A stretch of DNA of 44,963 bases, taken from the sequence record NC_073083.1; one strand, 5' to 3'. Below the pieces are notes generated by a model. It did not search any database. It worked only from the letters and a program-made list of their open reading frames with translations, and was not told the origin of the DNA. Below are positions 11,828-44,963 of this stretch, piece by piece; the stretch's first letter is position 1, and each line of letters opens with the position of its first letter. Source of the DNA: Escherichia phage BF9. The position numbers were made by a program, and so were the translations under genes.

Positions 11828-12150
11828 TTATTCAGTCTCAGACGAGGGGGGCCACTGACCCCCGTCTAGTCTGAAAGACTGGGCTTTGTCCCGCTTGTCC
11901 CGATCGGCTGAAAACCGCGGCAGCACTGGCGGGGACGGGGCGCCGTCCCGCTTTGTCCCGCATCTTGTTTGTCCCGCTTTTTGTCCCGTTTGTTTTATGC
12001 ACGAAATCCGAATAGGTATGCACATTTGTGGGGTGGGACAAAACGGGACGTCCCGATTGTCCCGCTTTTAGATTATGCAATGGAAGTGAGTAGGTATGCA
12101 CATTTGTGGGGTGGGACAAAACGGGACATCCCGTTTTGTCCCGCTTCATT
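11828..12150. repeat. Iteron region A: about 67 bp hairpin leader followed by 10 or more GTCCCG(C) heptamers in both orientations, including a roughly 74 bp tandem duplication
   Basis: Leader ttattcagtctcagacgaggggggccactgacccccgtctagtctgaaagactggg, then ttgtcccgc copies and gggacaaaacgggac inverted pairs. Near-identical leader at 28280. Non-coding in my reading; track ORFs across it are repeat-driven. Confidence 0.8.
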
Positions 12151-17699: not shown

Positions 17700-17750
17700 C
17701 GCTTGCAATCCGCGTATTGGTTGCACTATATTGGTTGCACACCAACCACG
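17700..17750 (+). promoter_or_regulatory. Promoter with tandem TTGGTTGCA motifs driving the rightward gene inside the head module
   Basis: TTGCAAtccgcgtaTTGGTTGCACTATATTGGTTGCACaccaacc gives TTGCAA-N17-CTATAT. The same 21 bp core (CTATATTGGTTGCACACCAAC) recurs in reverse orientation near 28085. Confidence 0.5.
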
Positions 17751-17761
17751 AGGACACACAA

Positions 17762-18526
17762 ATGAGACTGACTAAAGACATTAAAAACCAGATCCTGGCT
17801 AACATCCTGCGCGACCACGAAATAGCTACCGAAGCCAAATCAATCATGATGGACTCACGCGACCTGGCGTACGCCATTACGCTGGACTGTATGCCGGAAG
17901 GCATTCGCACATTCGCCGAGCTACTCGCGCGCATTGAAGCAATCGGCGATGATCCGTCGCAGATGTACGGCGTCTGTGTATACACCAATAAGGCGACGTA
18001 TAGACATGACGCCGACAACCCATATGGTATAGGCTGCGTTTACGACGCCACTTTCGAAATCAACGCAGGCGGAAACGTCCGTACCGTGTCATTGAGCGGA
18101 GACGGACACCGATTCCGAGTACATCGCGGATACTGGGAGTATAAATACATGAATAAACTGTCTCCCGATCTCGGCGATATTGTGCCAGGGTATGAGGAAA
18201 TTTTGTTAGCGTCAGTGTGCGAAGTCGACGACGACGGGAAAGCGCTGCCGATATATCTTCCGCGCGGTCGAGTAGACTACCCTGCGGACCATGATTTCTG
18301 TAAGCGCCTGGACCGTAACGACAAGGCCCGCCGCGAGTTGCGAGCTAAGTATGACGCGTTCAAACTAACCGTTACCGGCGTGCTGGATATGCACAATACC
18401 GATAAGAAGCTGATCAAGGCGTGGCCTGAAGTGGAACAGTTCATTCCGCACCCTGACAAGCCGAAGTCCACGGCGGTGGCGCTGGACGTGAAGACGCTAA
18501 ACGAGATTTGCGGTATTCCGCGCTAA
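17762..18526 (+). CDS. Hypothetical protein (254 aa) on the opposite strand within the head gene block; accessory (moron-like) gene
   Basis: Internal ATG (MRLTKDIKNQ) of track ORF 17717..18526 with RBS GAGGA; own promoter upstream and terminator downstream; no motif recognised. Confidence 0.6.
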   Translation: MRLTKDIKNQILANILRDHEIATEAKSIMMDSRDLAYAITLDCMPEGIRTFAELLARIEAIGDDPSQMYGVCVYTNKATYRHDADNPYGIGCVYDATFEINAGGNVRTVSLSGDGHRFRVHRGYWEYKYMNKLSPDLGDIVPGYEEILLASVCEVDDDGKALPIYLPRGRVDYPADHDFCKRLDRNDKARRELRAKYDAFKLTVTGVLDMHNTDKKLIKAWPEVEQFIPHPDKPKSTAVALDVKTLNEICGIPR

Positions 18527-26141: not shown

Positions 26142-26428
26142 TTTGCGCCCCCCGGAAGTCGGAACGACTCAATAGTCTCCCTGATCCGGGCGGCTATTGG
26201 CATCCAGAAGATTGCAGTTACGAAGCCCAAACCGGCGACAGTGCGCTCGCCCGATAAACCAGCCCACTCGGCGATAGCTGGCGCACCAAATATGGCACAC
26301 AGGAAGCCAACTACGATATATAAAACGAAGTTTAGCGGCCCTTTCGTAGCCTCGCCATGAATGCGTGCGCCTACGAAGCCGCCAGCCAGACATGCGAGGG
26401 CAAATAGCCACTCGTTTATCTTATCCAT
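26138..26428 (-). CDS. Holin candidate (96 aa membrane protein)
   Basis: Three hydrophobic helices and a charged C-terminus; first gene of the lysis cassette. Confidence 0.55.
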   Translation of the reverse strand: MDKINEWLFALACLAGGFVGARIHGEATKGPLNFVLYIVVGFLCAIFGAPAIAEWAGLSGERTVAGLGFVTAIFWMPIAARIRETIESFRLPGGAK

Positions 26429-26435
26429 AAAAAAG

Positions 26436-26466
26436 TCCCAGTAAGTTTTAGCTCACTGGGACTATA
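26436..26466 (-). terminator. Hairpin plus T-run immediately upstream of the holin gene
   Basis: Minus strand reads AGTCCCAGTGAGCTAAAACTTACTGGGACT followed by TTTTTT. Confidence 0.45.
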
Positions 26467-26480
26467 TCACGCTTGCGTAT

Positions 26481-26768
26481 TTAATCGAAAATGGACCACT
26501 TGCCGACGCCTTTCCACTCCCATCCTTCCGATCGGACGGCCTCGAACATCCGGCCCCCTATCATATCCCGATACCATAGCCACCACATGCGCAACCTGGT
26601 CGGGTGCTCCGTGATGCCACGGCGCTTGTATATCTGAAACGTCATGCGGGTAATGCTGGCGGCTTCCGCCGCAGGCCAAATCAGGAATACCCACACCAAC
26701 AGCGCCAGCACCGTAACAAAGAGTGTCGCGCACCCCAATCCAAACCAATATATCAAATCGTGTAGCAT
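26481..26768 (-). CDS. Hypothetical membrane protein (95 aa)
   Basis: Track ORF with an N-terminal transmembrane segment (LGCATLFVTVLALLVWVFLIW); preferred over the overlapping 26467..26811 frame. Confidence 0.45.
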   Translation of the reverse strand: MLHDLIYWFGLGCATLFVTVLALLVWVFLIWPAAEAASITRMTFQIYKRRGITEHPTRLRMWWLWYRDMIGGRMFEAVRSEGWEWKGVGKWSIFD

Positions 26769-27040
26769 CGTATTGCCCCTTCCGGCTTGCCAATATGGCG
26801 CGCCCAGGCACGCGCCACGAAGTAATTGCGGAACACCCGACCGCCTATCTCAAAGCGGTTGTGCATCAGCATATCACGAATCACAGCCGACACGGGATAC
26901 TACCTCCAGGTGTGGGTTATGGCGTGGCGCCCAGTGCGCTTGCTTAGTAGCCATATTACGTAGTTTAACCTGGTAATGGGTTACGGCTACAACCAGATAC
27001 AAATCACGGGTTAATTTATCCCGCACTAAATCGAATTTAT

Positions 27041-27352
27041 TCATTTCAGAATCACCGAGCGCGGGTCAATGGCGTTCATGCTGCCGTCTGGTTCGACACG
27101 GATGAATCCTACACCGTATTCCTGCGCATGGCGCTGTGCATTCGTCACGGCATCAAAGCGATTGACTATCTCACGCGTGGCATGGCGAATTTTAGATTGC
27201 TGGTTATGGTCACACCCGCTTTCGTCGATCTCGTCGGCTGTAAGGTTGTCGCCGTCGCATACCGTAGCGATTCCGTAGTGGGTGTAGTCGTCATAGCAGG
27301 ACACGAGGTCGATAAACTCCTGCGAACATCCTGCGAATAGTGCTGGGGTCAT
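27041..27352 (-). CDS. Hypothetical early protein (103 aa)
   Basis: Internal ATG (MTPALFAGCSQEF) of track ORF 27041..27454; the start overlaps the upstream stop (ATGA) and has RBS GGAGAC. Confidence 0.45.
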   Translation of the reverse strand: MTPALFAGCSQEFIDLVSCYDDYTHYGIATVCDGDNLTADEIDESGCDHNQQSKIRHATREIVNRFDAVTNAQRHAQEYGVGFIRVEPDGSMNAIDPRSVILK

Positions 27353-27501
27353 TTGCTCAGTCTCCGATAGTTCTTGTTCAGGGTAAATTGGCTGATAGTG
27401 TGGCGAGATTTGGTTTTTGGGTGCATGAGCGTTACGCTTCCGTCCCCCTCCCACACCACAAGATAAATCAGACCGGTTGCCTTGCTCTGAACTTTGATCA
27501 T
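27349..27501 (-). CDS. Hypothetical small protein (50 aa), not in ORF track
   Basis: MIKVQSKATGLIYLVVWEGDGSV...; its 17 nt initiation region (GGAGACTGAGCAAATGA) is identical to that of the next gene, with ATGA overlaps at both ends. Confidence 0.4.
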   Translation of the reverse strand: MIKVQSKATGLIYLVVWEGDGSVTLMHPKTKSRHTISQFTLNKNYRRLSK

Positions 27502-27767
27502 TTGCTCAGTCTCCAGTGTTTGCCTACCCGCTCAACGGCGGGCTTCCGGCGTAATGTAATACGTATTCCCATTGGTTGCAAGGAAGTCCGCACCCTGAAA
27601 TCGTGTTGTGCTGCGAACTGGTGCAAGTAGCGAGTCTGCGTCAACGGCTTCACGTCATCGCGATAACACCAGAATACAGATTCGCCATCAACCGCATTCT
27701 CAGCCCATATTCGTATGCAATGCAGTGGAATATGCCACGAAAGCTGTTTCGCTCGTCTGCGGCTCAT
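27498..27767 (-). CDS. Hypothetical early protein (89 aa)
   Basis: Track ORF, translationally coupled to the downstream small gene. Confidence 0.4.
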   Translation of the reverse strand: MSRRRAKQLSWHIPLHCIRIWAENAVDGESVFWCYRDDVKPLTQTRYLHQFAAQHDFRVRTSLQPMGIRITLRRKPAVERVGKHWRLSK

Positions 27768-27776
27768 TTTGGCCCC

Positions 27777-28067
27777 TTATTTCGCAAGCTGGGCGAATAG
27801 TTCGCGCTGGGCTTTAATCCGGGCGACGTTTGTCACTGCCGTCTCGCCGATCCCGAAGCGATACGCCAGGCGCTCACGGGCAAAGGCAAGCGCGTAAGCC
27901 CTGATAGCCGCGCGCAACGGCTCGGGGTCTTCCATGCCCGCGGTCGCATCCATGATCGCAAACCAGGTCGGAGCTACCAGGCGCTCCCACGGTGCTCTGC
28001 CGTTGGTGTATCTCACTTCGACCGGTTTTGCCACGGCCATTGTGTAATTCCAGATTAATGCTCTCAT
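27777..28067 (-). CDS. Hypothetical early protein (96 aa)
   Basis: Track ORF; first gene downstream of the 28068..28600 control region; RBS GAGGA. Confidence 0.45.
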   Translation of the reverse strand: MRALIWNYTMAVAKPVEVRYTNGRAPWERLVAPTWFAIMDATAGMEDPEPLRAAIRAYALAFARERLAYRFGIGETAVTNVARIKAQRELFAQLAK

Positions 28068-28279
28068 CGTTCAGTCCTCATGTTGGTGTGCAACCAATAT
28101 AGCAGGGTGCCAGGGCGAGCGCAACCAAGATTAATCACGCGCATGAAAAAGTTGATCGCTATCTGCTGTAACTGCAAACCGCATTTTTCACTCAACATAA
28201 TACAACCCGCATTGGTTGCCTAGTTCATCGACGACCGCACTTCGCGTCATGCTGCCGTGTATTTTGCAATCCCCGGATT
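28068..28279 (-). promoter_or_regulatory. Leftward promoter/operator region with several TGCAACCAA motifs
   Basis: Minus strand reads CTATATTGGTTGCACACCAAC (28085..28105), identical to the core at 17727..17747; further copies near 28123 and 28211. Confidence 0.45.
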
Positions 28280-28445
28280 TTATTCAGTCTCAGACGAGGG
28301 GGGCCACTGACCCCCGTCTAGTCTGAAAGACTGGGGTTTGTCCCGCCTGTCCCGCTCCTCTGGAAGCCGCGCCATCCGGGGCGGGACTGGGGTGCTGTCC
28401 CGCTTTGTCCCGCCCCCGGTCTGTCCCGCTTTCTGTCCCGCTTAC
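28280..28445. repeat. Iteron region B: same hairpin leader as region A (one mismatch) followed by 6 or more TGTCCCGC copies and one inverted copy
   Basis: ttattcagtctcagacgaggggggccactgacccccgtctagtctgaaagactggggtttgtcccgcctgtcccgc...ctgtcccgctttctgtcccgc. Lies about 160 bp 3' of the primase-helicase stop; three more GCAACCAAT motifs occupy 28480..28600. Confidence 0.8.
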
Positions 28446-28601
28446 TTTATGCAGTAAAACTGCATAACTATTCATTATATTTACACTACACGGCAACCAA
28501 TACGACCGGATAAAAACACTCAAAATGGCAACCAATGCGCGCAAATTTTAATCTTTTAGCGATATGGGAATTCCCATATCGGCAACCAATACACGCACAA
28601 A

Positions 28602-30866
28602 TTAATCTTTCAGGTCGTCATCGGTCGCCGAAAGCGTGATGGGTATATTCGTTTTGATGACGATATTAGACGACCCATAGATGGCCCCTGTGTGTGGGTC
28701 TGTGTAAAACCCAAGCACGCCGCGCTCGACCATATCGTCTATTGCCTTCGTCGATGTGCCACCTTTTGCCAATCCCGCCTGGCGGACAATTGCCGATTTA
28801 CTGAATCCGGTATGGTCCGGGTTATCTTCCATCAGTTTTTCCAGTGCCGCATAAAGCACTTTCTCTTTTTCGTTGCGCGGTCCTGCGGCGTTCTCATCCT
28901 TAACTGCGGCCTTGCCAGCGGACTTCGCCTGTTCGATGGCGAACGGTGCCAGGGCGACCGGTACGAGGTACAGAGTCTCGTCGCGTGGTGTGGATGCAAT
29001 TGGCTTGACGTCCCAACCGGCAACTACGTCGCCGAAGTCTGGCCCGGTGCTGGTGGACTGGTGCGACGCGAACGCTTCTGACTTGCGGAGATCCACCTTC
29101 ACCTTGCACTTGAGCAGGACGAAGCCACGCGGCGCTTGCTTGATGCCGTTACGTGATTTTTCGTGGTACAGGTTCAATTGTCCGGGCTGGTTGTCGTCCG
29201 GCTGTTCCAGGAAGAAAGCTGAATCGACAGCACCATGAAGCGCACCGGACCCGCGCGGGGATCTGCTGCCGTTTGCACCTTTCGCCGGGTGGTGGATGAC
29301 GCCCGCACTGCCACCTGTATTTTCCGCAATGGCTTTCAGCGCTTTGACCACTTCACCCATATCGCTGGCGTTGTTCTCGTCGAACGGTTTAGCATCGGCG
29401 GACCGCAGCGCAACAGTCTGGTTGAGTGAGTCGAACGCCACCAGGCCAACCGGCTCGCCGTTAGCGGTGCGGTTGATGAAGCTGATAACTTCACGCAAGC
29501 CGGATTTGCTGGTGATATCCCAGCCGCGTGATTGCAGATCGATAATGTGCAGCTTGTCCAGGTCGTGCTCATATTTAATCTGCAATGCTTCTTTGCGCTG
29601 GTTAGAGGCTTCACCACCTTCCGCGTCGAAATAGAAGCAATGAGACTGGACGACCTTCGCGCCACCGAACGGAATCCCCGCGGCAACCGCACCCATTTGC
29701 CCCAGCACGTAGAACGATTTACCGATGTTCGACTCACCCGCCATATACCAGGTTGATTTAAAGTTAACCAACCCCTCGATAATCGGGTCGTGCTTACTGA
29801 ACAGCGCAACCGGCTCGTTATCCAGATCCGCATCGGTGCACACGCCGTATTCTTCGCCGTCGCCAACCGCATCAACAATATGTTCATATAAGGATTCGAC
29901 TTCCTCGTCGTCCAGCCCTGGGAGGATGGCGGCGATTTGCTTACGTGACATGTTGTGCGGTTCGACGTTCAGGTGGTCCGGTATCCCGATGAGGCGTAGC
30001 GCAAGGTGCTGGTGTCTATTTAGCTCCGAGCAACACTCGTTGCCGGTGTGCATACACTTGAAACGGATCTCGCCATCCTTAACCATGATAGCGGTGGACC
30101 CTTCGCCGCTGTGCAGGTGTTCGTTTGGGCATGGCACTTCATAACCACGACCGGACGACAGCGGTTCTAATCCCGCCTGGAAGCACCAATCCAGAATACC
30201 GTCCGCCACGCCGTCATCGCCCTGGGTTAGTTCGCGGCGTACTTCCTCTTTTTCCACTCCCAGCTTATCAGCCAGGCGAAGCAGACGACGGACGCGGGCG
30301 CGCTTGCCGTAGTGGCACTTAACGACAGACTGCTGGTGTGGCAGGTACATCAGGCGGTTTGTGTCTTTCGTGCAATCGTCGAAGTCCACATCTGACAGAC
30401 CCAGTTGGTGTAATAGTGCATACTGGACGCGGCCCAGGTCTTCAGCCGGTACGGGCTTATCTGTTAGCACCAGGAAACGAGCGCAACGCGTGCCGCCTTT
30501 CAGCGGGTGGCGGTCGCCGGTAGTGGTGTGAAATACATGTTCCAGTCCCGCGTCGATGAAAGCCTTACGGCAGCGGCGCAGGGTGCGGGTGTCGGTGCGG
30601 TCAATATCGAAGAACAGGATCGAGCGGTCCACAGCACTGGTCTTGCGGCGTAAGCCGTCACTGGTATACGCCACGATGCCATCGGCCTTACGCTTACGGC
30701 GCGCATACTCGGCTTTATCCTCGGTCTTGTTGATATGCACCGAGGAGATTTCTTTCGCGTCATTGATGAATTCGAAAAATTCATCGGTAGTCATCTGGAA
30801 GTTTTCCGCCCTGGCTTTTTCGCCTTTTTTAGCGGGTCGTGTTACAGCGAATTTAATTAAGCTCAT
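28602..30866 (-). CDS. DNA primase-helicase (N-terminal primase-polymerase-like domain, central P-loop NTPase, C-terminal putative DNA-binding domain)
   Basis: 754 aa; acidic FFDIDRTD motif in the N-terminal domain, Walker A-like MAGESNIGKSF, Walker B-like LVAFDS, and a C-terminal region of about 150 aa. Confidence 0.65.
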   Translation of the reverse strand: MSLIKFAVTRPAKKGEKARAENFQMTTDEFFEFINDAKEISSVHINKTEDKAEYARRKRKADGIVAYTSDGLRRKTSAVDRSILFFDIDRTDTRTLRRCRKAFIDAGLEHVFHTTTGDRHPLKGGTRCARFLVLTDKPVPAEDLGRVQYALLHQLGLSDVDFDDCTKDTNRLMYLPHQQSVVKCHYGKRARVRRLLRLADKLGVEKEEVRRELTQGDDGVADGILDWCFQAGLEPLSSGRGYEVPCPNEHLHSGEGSTAIMVKDGEIRFKCMHTGNECCSELNRHQHLALRLIGIPDHLNVEPHNMSRKQIAAILPGLDDEEVESLYEHIVDAVGDGEEYGVCTDADLDNEPVALFSKHDPIIEGLVNFKSTWYMAGESNIGKSFYVLGQMGAVAAGIPFGGAKVVQSHCFYFDAEGGEASNQRKEALQIKYEHDLDKLHIIDLQSRGWDITSKSGLREVISFINRTANGEPVGLVAFDSLNQTVALRSADAKPFDENNASDMGEVVKALKAIAENTGGSAGVIHHPAKGANGSRSPRGSGALHGAVDSAFFLEQPDDNQPGQLNLYHEKSRNGIKQAPRGFVLLKCKVKVDLRKSEAFASHQSTSTGPDFGDVVAGWDVKPIASTPRDETLYLVPVALAPFAIEQAKSAGKAAVKDENAAGPRNEKEKVLYAALEKLMEDNPDHTGFSKSAIVRQAGLAKGGTSTKAIDDMVERGVLGFYTDPHTGAIYGSSNIVIKTNIPITLSATDDDLKD

Positions 30867-41784: not shown

Positions 41785-42243
41785 ATGAAAATTTTACAAG
41801 AAGAAAAAGCATACTGGGCCGCGCAATGCCTCGAAGCCCGCGAACAGGCCGACCGTGCGAACGCGTTGGCGGACACCAACCAGGCGCTATATGAAGGCGA
41901 GGAGAAGGCGCGCAAGGAATTAGAGGAGCGCTTCGATCTGCTGTATGAGTTGATGGGTATTATGCAGCGCACCGGATACACCACCACCGTCGCGCTAAAC
42001 CGCATCACTGCCGAAGGTCTGCGCGAGCATTGCAAACGTGCCGAGGAGTACGTGCGTCCGAAGGGTCGTCAGTCTAAGATCGACCGGAAAGACCTGGTGC
42101 TTATGGCGTGGCGCGCAAACGGTAGCTACTACTCCGATTGCCGACCGCTTAGCGTCGAGGGAGCAAAGCGCCGGCAACGCGTTCTAAACAGTGGTAAGAA
42201 AATTGCCCTGTACGCGATAGATCAAGACCATGCAGAAGAGTGA
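41785..42243 (+). CDS. Hypothetical protein (152 aa), coiled-coil N-terminus
   Basis: Track ORF, tightly coupled to its neighbours. Confidence 0.45.
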   Translation: MKILQEEKAYWAAQCLEAREQADRANALADTNQALYEGEEKARKELEERFDLLYELMGIMQRTGYTTTVALNRITAEGLREHCKRAEEYVRPKGRQSKIDRKDLVLMAWRANGSYYSDCRPLSVEGAKRRQRVLNSGKKIALYAIDQDHAEE

Positions 42244-44551: not shown

Positions 44552-44687
44552 CCTTCCAGCTTCTCCACTTTCCGCAACAGGTGAACGAAGGCGGCGCACA
44601 GATCCATCAACAGCACGTTACTATCGAGAGTCAGCACATCGTCTGTGTACCCGATTTCCTTTCGGTCGATTACAACTTCGTTCCCTT
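44552..44687. repeat. Extra tandem copy of the 136 bp unit that equals window positions 1..136
   Basis: Exact match read directly in the sequence; the next copy starts at 44688. Confidence 0.85.
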
Positions 44688-44963
44688 CCTTCCAGCTTCT
44701 CCACTTTCCGCAACAGGTGAACGAAGGCGGCGCACAGATCCATCAACAGCACGTTACTATCGAGAGTCAGCACATCGTCTGTGTACCCGATTTCCTTTCG
44801 GTCGATTACAACTTCGTTCCCTTCCTCGTCCACCCCCTTGATATCCTCATAAATGGCATAACCCGGCAGCAAGTGTACGTATTCTGGGTCAATCCTTGCC
44901 AGATCCTGTGCGATAAGGCCGTATCGCTGTACGTCCGACTCCTTATCCTTGAACATTGCCGGA
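44688..44963. repeat. Terminal overlap: duplicate of window positions 1..276 (one mismatch, C at 44945 versus A at 258)
   Basis: Read directly in the sequence; encodes the tail fiber C-terminus (track ORF 44621..44956, minus strand). Confidence 0.9.

Follow-up and report, generated by a model that had tools for sequence, protein, structure and literature searches.

A 17-nucleotide start/stop junction as a likely boundary sequence of small-gene turnover in Escherichia phage BF9 and related Dhillonvirus genomes

The small-gene block of phage BF9

The genome of Escherichia phage BF9 (NC_073083.1; 44,963 nucleotides (nt), analysed over its whole length and called the window here) carries on its minus strand, from 28067 to 26481, a block of small genes in which a 17-nt sequence, GGAGACTGAGCAAATGA, occurs twice, each time where one gene stops and the next one starts. 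Megablast of positions 26400-28700 returned 157 phage records, nearly all of them Escherichia or Shigella Dhillonvirus at 86-93% identity, which identifies the window as a Dhillonvirus genome. Throughout the genus the primase-helicase gene, a repeat-rich non-coding region of ~530 nt, the small genes, two holin genes and the endolysin gene are co-oriented. The block is flanked on one side by the primase-helicase gene and its control region, which is rich in repeats, and on the other by the lysis genes, and a conserved terminator-like hairpin stands at its end.

We compared the block with the corresponding loci of 34 non-identical relatives, 15 of which are IMG/VR contigs and the remainder GenBank records, two duplicates having been removed. 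Selection was estimated over this set as the Nei-Gojobori ratio of nonsynonymous to synonymous substitution rates (dN/dS), while counts of the accessory genes were taken among the ~157 related phage records. An earlier note on this DNA had described five small genes. All five open reading frames (ORFs) are present with the ends it assigned to them, but the block has seven; the two that were missed, g5 and g6, are both annotated in relatives and fill the 272 nt (26769-27040) that had been left empty. The genes and the two copies of the 17-nt sequence, hereafter the junction, are listed in the order of transcription, with the fraction of relatives that carry each gene.

g1: 27777..28067, minus strand; 96 amino acids (aa), core gene, 34/34 relatives, dN/dS 0.39
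g2: 27498..27767, minus strand; 89 aa, core gene, 33/34 relatives, dN/dS 0.19
Junction copy 1, GGAGACTGAGCAAATGA: 27498..27514, minus strand; GGAG, a 9-nt spacer and the g3 ATG overlapping the g2 stop
g3: 27349..27501, minus strand; 50 aa, accessory cassette gene, 13/34 relatives, dN/dS 0.19, no PHROG match
Junction copy 2, GGAGACTGAGCAAATGA: 27349..27365, minus strand; g4 ATG overlapping the g3 stop
g4: 27041..27352, minus strand; 103 aa from the ATG, acidic, in-frame deletion fusion of an orf57-like gene to the 3' end of a gene called L in relatives
g5: 26874..27044, minus strand; 56 aa, accessory cassette gene, 8/34 relatives, dN/dS 0.10, ATGA overlap with g4
g6: 26753..26893, minus strand; 46 aa, core gene, 34/34 relatives at 87-100% aa identity, dN/dS 0.12, phrog_13628
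g7: 26481..26768, minus strand; 95 aa, core gene, 33/34 relatives, dN/dS 0.21, phrog_2531

The ORFs are conserved as coding sequences. They are intact, and six of the seven (g1, g2, g3, g5, g6 and g7) show purifying selection, with dN/dS of 0.10-0.39, and conserved ORF lengths among the relatives. Both ATGA stop/start overlaps reported earlier are present, at 27498-27501 (g2/g3) and 27349-27352 (g3/g4), but there are three among the real genes, the third joining g4 to g5; longer overlaps of 20 nt and 16 nt link g5 to g6 and g6 to g7, and the 9 nt between g1 and g2 are the sole spacer of the block. A scan of the window found no terminator-like site within the block. These overlaps and the selection on the ORFs bear out the first description of tightly coupled coding genes of unknown function, and positions 28067-26481 of the minus strand are probably one gap-free operon of seven small protein-coding genes. 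Judging from the overlaps between its genes the operon would be translationally coupled, and its transcription would start in the upstream region.

The locus tags of g7, g3 and g1 in the BF9 record are gp29, gp30 and gp31, with consecutive accessions, and therefore g2, g4, g5 and g6 appear to be unannotated there. The present gene list is thus of value for annotation, as these four genes, apparently absent from the BF9 annotation, have homologues that are annotated in relatives.

Turnover of gene content, which the earlier note took as a mark of accessory functions, is seen in part of the block only. g3 occurs in 23 and g5 in 10 of the ~157 related records, all of them Dhillonvirus, the g5 copies at 95-98% identity, and g4 is unique to this phage, but g1, g2, g6 and g7 are core (33-34/34 relatives). 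Apart from the acidic g4, all proteins of the block are basic. Remote homology gave no functional lead: the block proteins had no significant match in Pfam or NCBIfam, nothing annotated was matched in PHROGs by any of eight ORFs (g1-g7 and g0, an ORF upstream of g1), and the predicted folds were uninformative. Pfam searches with five cassette proteins from relatives likewise gave nothing annotated. The statement that none of the genes has a recognisable motif therefore holds for Pfam and NCBIfam, but not for PHROG families of unknown function, which are matched by five genes on a strict count (by g4 in two separate halves, by g3 and g5 not at all), and the family of g7 extends over 485 phage records. 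In the Dhillonvirus papers searched we found no transcriptome or genetic data for this block.

The 17-nt junction and a probable cassette slot

The identical 17 nt at the starts of g3 and g4, recognised in the earlier note, are far from a chance repeat. GGAGACTGAGCAAATGA is found exactly twice in the 45-kb genome, where 0.03 matches are expected even with 3 mismatches, and two or more were seen in 0/100 shuffles. No further copy exists in the genome with 3 mismatches allowed, and ~60 other genes do without it. The spacer between GGAG and ATG reads ACTGAGCAA in both copies, and the last five codons of g2 (WRLSK) together with its stop codon make up junction copy 1. The RNA around the junctions shows no excess of structure over shuffled controls (z = -1.1 and +1.9), as expected for open, coupled initiation sites. 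Nothing scored above threshold in Rfam, a weak match to NsiR1 (27.4 bits against a threshold of 39) being the terminator hairpin.

The initiation regions are identical, as had been noted, but they are not peculiar to two genes; the sequence is found across the genus, where it appears to mark the boundaries of a cassette slot. Its 13-nt core, GGAGACTGAGCAA, is present in the loci of 31/34 relatives in 60 copies, 42 of them exact, at 1-3 per genome, and GGAGACTGAGCAA(A)TGA always lies at gene junctions in the interval bounded by the g2 end and the L start. The junction sequence ends g2 in 31/34 relatives, and the gene that comes next varies with the phage: L, a g3-like gene, an orf57-like gene, a 62-63-aa gene or a 114-aa gene paralogous to L's N-terminal domain. 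At least four unrelated families are preceded by the junction, and each inserted gene closes with a further copy of it. Two registers are used. With ...GCAAATGA the upstream protein ends in RLSK*, and with ...GAGGAGACTGAGCAATGA it ends in EETEQ*; because the two are read in different frames, the conserved entity is the DNA or RNA and not the peptide. Outside Dhillonvirus the exact 17-mer had nine single-copy matches in unrelated contexts among 2.9 million viral contigs, consistent with chance.

The arrangement between g2 and g6 differs in almost every relative. For every close g3 homologue the spacing from junction to junction grows by exactly +149 nt, and the g3 cassette of 149 nt consists of 132 unique nt and one junction copy. 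The orf57-like genes add +150 or +141 nt (genes of 50 and 47 aa) or +132 nt (the 44-aa form). All four combinations of these two cassettes exist. Neither is present in the HK578-like locus L005, in L007 or in Gluttony_ev152 (L with a number denotes the locus of a relative); YD-2008.s, 011D5 and Kenya-K19 have g3 without orf57; SSL-2009a and others have orf57 without g3; and Oekolampad, LF50P3, SM_A2 and the window have both. We saw g3 in three different downstream contexts.

Sequence similarity is equally discontinuous. The locus giving the best nucleotide match shifts gene by gene along the block, from L014 through L005, L040, L013, L045, L048 and again L005 to L004, with the following identities.

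g1: L014, 96%
g2: L005, 95%
g3: Oekolampad and LF50P3, 97.7%
g4, 5' part: slur05, 92%
g4, 3' part: ZCEC11, 97%
g5: JohannBuxtorf, 98%
g6: L005, 96%
g7: L004, 95%

At the g3/g4 junction, identity to Oekolampad falls from 97.7% to a different allele right after the ATGA. Similarity breakpoints and indel ends coincide with the junction.

The gene that follows g3 in the window has a composite structure. Residues 1-45 of g4 match the 47-aa family phrog_15977, and the end of the 184-aa family phrog_10243 is matched by residues 49-103; in nucleotides, 1-131 align to the small gene and 163-312, the ~50 last codons, to the 3' end of L. In relatives these halves are separate genes, the orf57-like gene of 44-84 aa and L of 174-205 aa. 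By blastn the two pieces lie ~610 nt apart in slur05, and that stretch is missing in the window, while the linker of g4 resembles a 69-aa variant of phage BEK2-2. Megablast with g4 returned 85 records, none of them contiguous, and the exact protein is absent from a collection of 15 billion proteins. To judge from these alignments, g4 is a recent in-frame deletion fusion that is particular to this phage. The other accessory gene, g5, is inserted exactly at the ATGA where L stops and g6 starts in relatives, and g6 thereby gains a new ribosome-binding site, GGAGG, and a new start codon, GTG.

We consider it likely that the 17-mer is a genus-wide boundary sequence of a cassette slot and that small genes are gained and lost at this junction. 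The main slot would lie between g2 and L, with every gene in it ending in GGAGACTGAGCAA(A)TGA, so arranged that a ribosome-binding site, an 8-9-nt spacer and the start of the next gene overlap the stop of the previous one. Because every cassette would carry the junction, exchange could be precise: a crossover between two junction copies, residing within one genome or in two co-infecting phages, would add, remove or swap a cassette, and the next gene would always retain a working, translationally coupled start. The junction would in this way combine a ribosome-binding site, a coupling point and the homology for cassette gain and loss. In the phage studied here the slot would hold g3, as a 149-nt cassette with two identical junction copies, and then g4, in which a later in-frame deletion has joined the 3' end of L to an orf57-like cassette; g5 would occupy a second slot, located at the L/g6 ATGA. 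We infer from the coincidence of breakpoints that the crossovers fall within the 13-17 nt themselves.

Several points weigh against this account. Crossovers could instead fall in the flanking conserved g2 and L, the junction being merely inherited along with them, and 17 nt is short for RecA-type recombination, although the annotation of the relative SM_S22 indicates that the phage encodes an annealing protein and an exonuclease of its own. The slots upstream of g1, at L/g6 and at g6/g7 do without the 17-mer, so that turnover does not in general depend on the junction. Type-B copies of the junction are more variable, reading GGAGACAGAACAA in 6 cases. With regard to the operon as a whole, the standard, stricter sigma-70 scan gave no convincing operon promoter on this strand.

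What the genes do is a separate matter, on which the earlier note proposed that the block consists of early host-takeover or anti-defence genes. We regard this assignment as possible but doubtful. The proteins are small, mostly basic and, apart from g7, restricted to the genus; g3, g4 and g5 are variable, with the 23 records, the unique occurrence and the 10 records given above; and a hypervariable surface helix of g1 shows raised dN/dS. The genus also carries small anti-defence and immune-trigger proteins, namely anti-Tmn, which is ORF35 of SM_S22 and was experimentally shown to be an anti-defence protein (PMC11846954), and Ksap1 of SECphi18, a small Dhillonvirus protein with a demonstrated role in phage-defence interplay (PMC11564622). 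However, four of the seven genes are core, and the presence of g1, g2, g6 and g7 in nearly all relatives is a poor fit to freely exchangeable accessory functions. No protein of the block has homology to a characterised anti-defence protein in Pfam, NCBIfam or PHROGs, and the known anti-Tmn and Ksap1 genes lie at other loci; the anti-Tmn homologue of the window, 82% identical to ORF35 of SM_S22 (labelled 'DNA ligase' in the SM_S22 record), is at 41785-42243 on the plus strand. In the escape-mutant papers checked for the related phage SECphi18, the reported mutations affect Ksap1, SSB, the portal protein and DNA polymerase, and none lies in this block. The published Dhillonvirus work on Ksap1, anti-Tmn, RAZR, escape mutants of retron Eco8 and Borvo, and EE09 proteomics does not concern this block either. 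For the variable cassettes alone, our best guess is that they are dispensable host-interaction factors.

An unlikely origin for the repeated junction is tandem duplication, in which g3, g5 and the N-terminus of L would be diverged duplicates, the junction a duplicated gene end, and copy number a matter of unequal crossing-over. The 114-aa gene of locus L014 lends this idea some substance, as it is a true paralogue, ~35% identical to the N-terminal domain of L, and its end, ...RVGRKATWRLRK, resembles that of g2, ...ERVGKHWRLSK. Moreover, g3, g5 and the L N-terminus can be aligned in register around K-x-T/D-x-x-Y-L-V...V-x-L. Yet the comparisons among these three are not significant (hhalign probability <=5%; BLASTP from E = 0.02 to no alignment), and we rejected them as paralogues on that basis, while the orf57-like and the 62-63-aa families have no similarity to the others.

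There is little to recommend convergence, whereby each gene evolved the same optimal ribosome-binding region and the 17-mer has no role in recombination. In its favour, a canonical GGAG stands 8-9 nt before the ATG in unstructured RNA, and ATGA overlaps are a common coupling device, used at g4/g5 without the 17-mer. Ribosome binding, however, constrains GGAG and its distance from the start and not the 9 nt between them, yet the exact 13-nt core is shared by 42/60 copies. None of the ~60 other genes of the genome uses the 17-mer, and indels (+149, +150, +141 and +132 nt) end exactly at it.

A cis-acting RNA signal, either the target of a translational repressor or the site of a GGAG-cutting endoribonuclease, by which the slot genes are co-regulated, is about as improbable. 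It would agree with a conservation that concerns the nucleotide sequence, spans both reading frames and extends through the spacer, and with the confinement of the motif to one co-transcribed gene group. We identified no candidate regulator and no conserved RNA structure, Rfam returned nothing above its threshold, and an RNA signal alone fails to explain why indel ends match the motif. Least probable is a dedicated docking site, which the annealase and exonuclease of the phage or a site-cutting nuclease would actively use to capture and shuffle small genes; were it true, the slot would be the phage equivalent of an array of integron cassettes, in which captured genes receive a ribosome-binding site and a coupled start and which serves as a rapidly reshuffled store of host-interaction factors.

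Core genes and flanking sequences

Of the core genes, g1 is predicted to be a four-helix bundle whose second helix is the hypervariable one, and g2, which is very basic with a net charge of +11, is predicted to be an alpha/beta protein. Fold searches with the two gave non-specific matches that indicated no function, and the contigs on which these genes were found were all of Dhillonvirus size or shorter fragments. Our best guess for g2 is that it binds nucleic acid. The GTG start of g6 lies nine nt after GGAGG, and homologues of this gene are annotated in relatives. An insert of ~101 nt (101-114 nt) separates g6 from g7 in 14/33 relatives.

The last protein of the block, g7, was said to have a transmembrane helix, and its N-terminal hydrophobic helix indeed reaches a Kyte-Doolittle 19-residue maximum of 2.59 at residue 12. 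This helix is variable among relatives, and residues 31-95, including a Trp-rich domain, are nearly invariant. Over residues 1-95 g7 matches phrog_2531 with E = 1.8e-36. The family extends beyond the genus: a profile search gave 26 representative clusters whose distant members align end to end, and tblastn with a distant member gave the 485 phage records mentioned above, mostly Salmonella Jerseyvirus and also Erwinia, Pectobacterium and Klebsiella phages. Like g7, the PHROG 2531 proteins have 94-108 aa, with an N-terminal membrane helix followed by W-x-W-P-A-x-E-A-x-S-x-T-R and a C-terminal G-R...W-x-W-x-G-V-G-x-W motif. The gene neighbourhoods differ by genus, with a nin-like small-gene array in Jerseyvirus and a position beside a RecB-like nuclease gene in Pectobacterium phage PEAT2. 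As g7 adjoins a holin gene we considered it as a lysis regulator; the idea is unsupported because homologues in other genera lie away from lysis genes. A membrane-anchored factor is our best guess for g7. In Pubbukkers (L054) there is no annotated g7, tblastn finds no homologue, and g6 is directly followed by the holin region; JohannBuxtorf (L048) has an independent internal deletion of L, which leaves 124 aa. Even members counted as core can therefore be lost or truncated in viable phages.

The features that flank the block are the following.

Primase-helicase gene: 28602-30866, minus strand
ORF g0: 28064..28198, minus strand; 44 aa, ATGA overlap with g1, matches phrog_23498, annotated in some relatives
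Candidate operon promoter: 28096..28124, minus strand; TTGCGC, 17 nt, TGcTATATT, from a relaxed consensus scan, within two copies of ATTGGTTGC
Intrinsic-terminator-like hairpin with U-run: 26428..26463, minus strand; closes the operon, the U-run abutting the holin ATG

We rejected g0 as an eighth gene, in view of its dN/dS of 0.79 and an ORF that is 3-145 codons long among relatives and often broken. The 3' half of g0 is a variable spacer with a conserved ATTGGTTGC site on either side, and the ORF is probably not a gene but part of the regulatory region. Seven relatives have an extra gene upstream of g1, with the start region of g1 kept.

The 9-mer ATTGGTTGC has 15 copies in the genome where 0.5 are expected. 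Those upstream of g1 are conserved in most relatives with a variable spacer between them, and the motif is probably a phage promoter or operator element. The sequence at 28096..28124, found at the relaxed threshold, is a candidate for the operon promoter. Copies of ATTGGTTGC cluster at 28090-28590 and lie also at 1627, 17716, 17730, 25159, 27571, 31405, 38519, 41461, 41478 and 43385; several of these sites are intergenic, and the motif is often arranged as TATATTGGTTGCA or as inverted pairs. One copy is antisense within the coding sequence of g2 (27571-27579, plus strand). A near-duplicate of the sequence that precedes g1 (cTATATTGGTTGCACACCAAC...GAGGAC...ATGAGA) lies at 17726-17775, before a start codon on the plus strand.

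At the other end of the block, the terminator-like hairpin noted earlier in front of the holin gene is well founded. Positions 26463-26434 of the minus strand form 12 pairs with -24.1 kcal/mol (z = -5.9), and the hairpin is kept in 34/34 relatives, the most divergent of which has a compensatory extra C-G pair. With its G+C-rich stem-loop, U-run and conservation, 26428-26463 is predicted to be a Rho-independent terminator. Directly upstream of the hairpin is an extended -10-like TGaTATAGT (26461-26490, minus strand) that is conserved in 34/34 relatives, and the holin ATG comes directly after the U-run, without a Shine-Dalgarno sequence. A transcript from TGaTATAGT would start in the 5' arm of the stem and would therefore escape termination and carry the holin ATG, so that this element and the hairpin region (26426-26463) may form an overlapping terminator and lysis-gene promoter.

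Two further observations concern the genome at large. An exact 56-nt repeat with a strong GC hairpin (GACGGGGGTCAGTGGCCCCCCTCGTC), accompanied by repeat runs of GCGGGACA(G/A), is found at 28280-28445, in the control region beside the primase gene, and at 11828-12130, in the non-coding stretch upstream of the tape-measure gene; on the basis of these repeats the two sites may be copies of an origin-like or regulatory element. The ends of the window overlap, 1-259 and 261-276 being identical to 44688-44946 and 44948-44963 with one mismatch between, and a 136-nt tandem duplication covers 44552-44690 and 44688-44826. These repeats could be real, or they could reflect assembly wrap-around of a genome that is circularly permuted or has terminal redundancy.

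Significance and comparison with known systems

For a genus now under engineering for therapeutic use (PMC11846954), the slot provides an insertion point that is exact, is tolerated in nature and brings its own sequence for ribosome binding and coupling. With GGAGACTGAGCAAATGA as its end, a payload gene could probably be placed between g2 and the next gene with expression undisturbed. The four core small genes are candidates for conserved and possibly essential functions, and for screens of host range or anti-defence activity the three dispensable cassettes are the better candidates.

To our knowledge, the junction has not been described as a boundary sequence in Dhillonvirus. A resemblance at the level of single starts is offered by the start-associated sequences (SAS) of Cluster K mycobacteriophages, a conserved 13-nt motif with a ribosome-binding site upstream of some start codons. 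Both motifs place a ribosome-binding site immediately before the start codons of a subset of genes. The SAS, however, are dispersed over the genome and thought to be translational signals, whereas all copies of the junction lie in one slot, where indels end at them.

A second parallel is provided by the PeSL elements of T4-type phages, reportedly described by Arbiol et al. in 2010 as 'mobile regulatory cassettes' in which an early promoter and a stem-loop flank novel ORFs in hyperplastic regions. In both cases a conserved regulatory sequence flanks small variable ORFs and is proposed to shuffle them while keeping their expression. PeSL are transcriptional units of ~50-70 nt, made of a promoter and a terminator-like stem-loop, in contrast to the junction, which is a translational start/stop overlap within an operon, without a promoter or hairpin.

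Like anti-Tmn and Ksap1, the proteins of the block are small, are genus-restricted apart from g7, and have variable alleles; those two, however, are encoded at other loci and have no homologue among g1-g7.

The closest precedent is mycobacteriophage Island3, in which gene 68, an insertion, has the same C-terminal 18 residues as gene 67 upstream of it, and short conserved sequences at gene boundaries, as in the modular-evolution model for lambdoid phages, have been proposed as drivers of phage mosaicism (PMC3029335). There, as in the present block, a short repeat at the 3' ends of neighbouring genes flanks an inserted gene that relatives precisely lack, and homologous recombination between the repeats is the proposed mechanism. 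The repeat is shorter here, with 13-17 nt against ~50 bp in Island3, and it differs from that of Island3 in doubling as ribosome-binding site, start codon and stop codon, and in occurring up to three times per genome, in dozens of genomes and in two frames. The architecture is thus already known in kind, and the Dhillonvirus slot gives a clean natural illustration, rarely so visible, of the boundary-sequence model of phage mosaicism.

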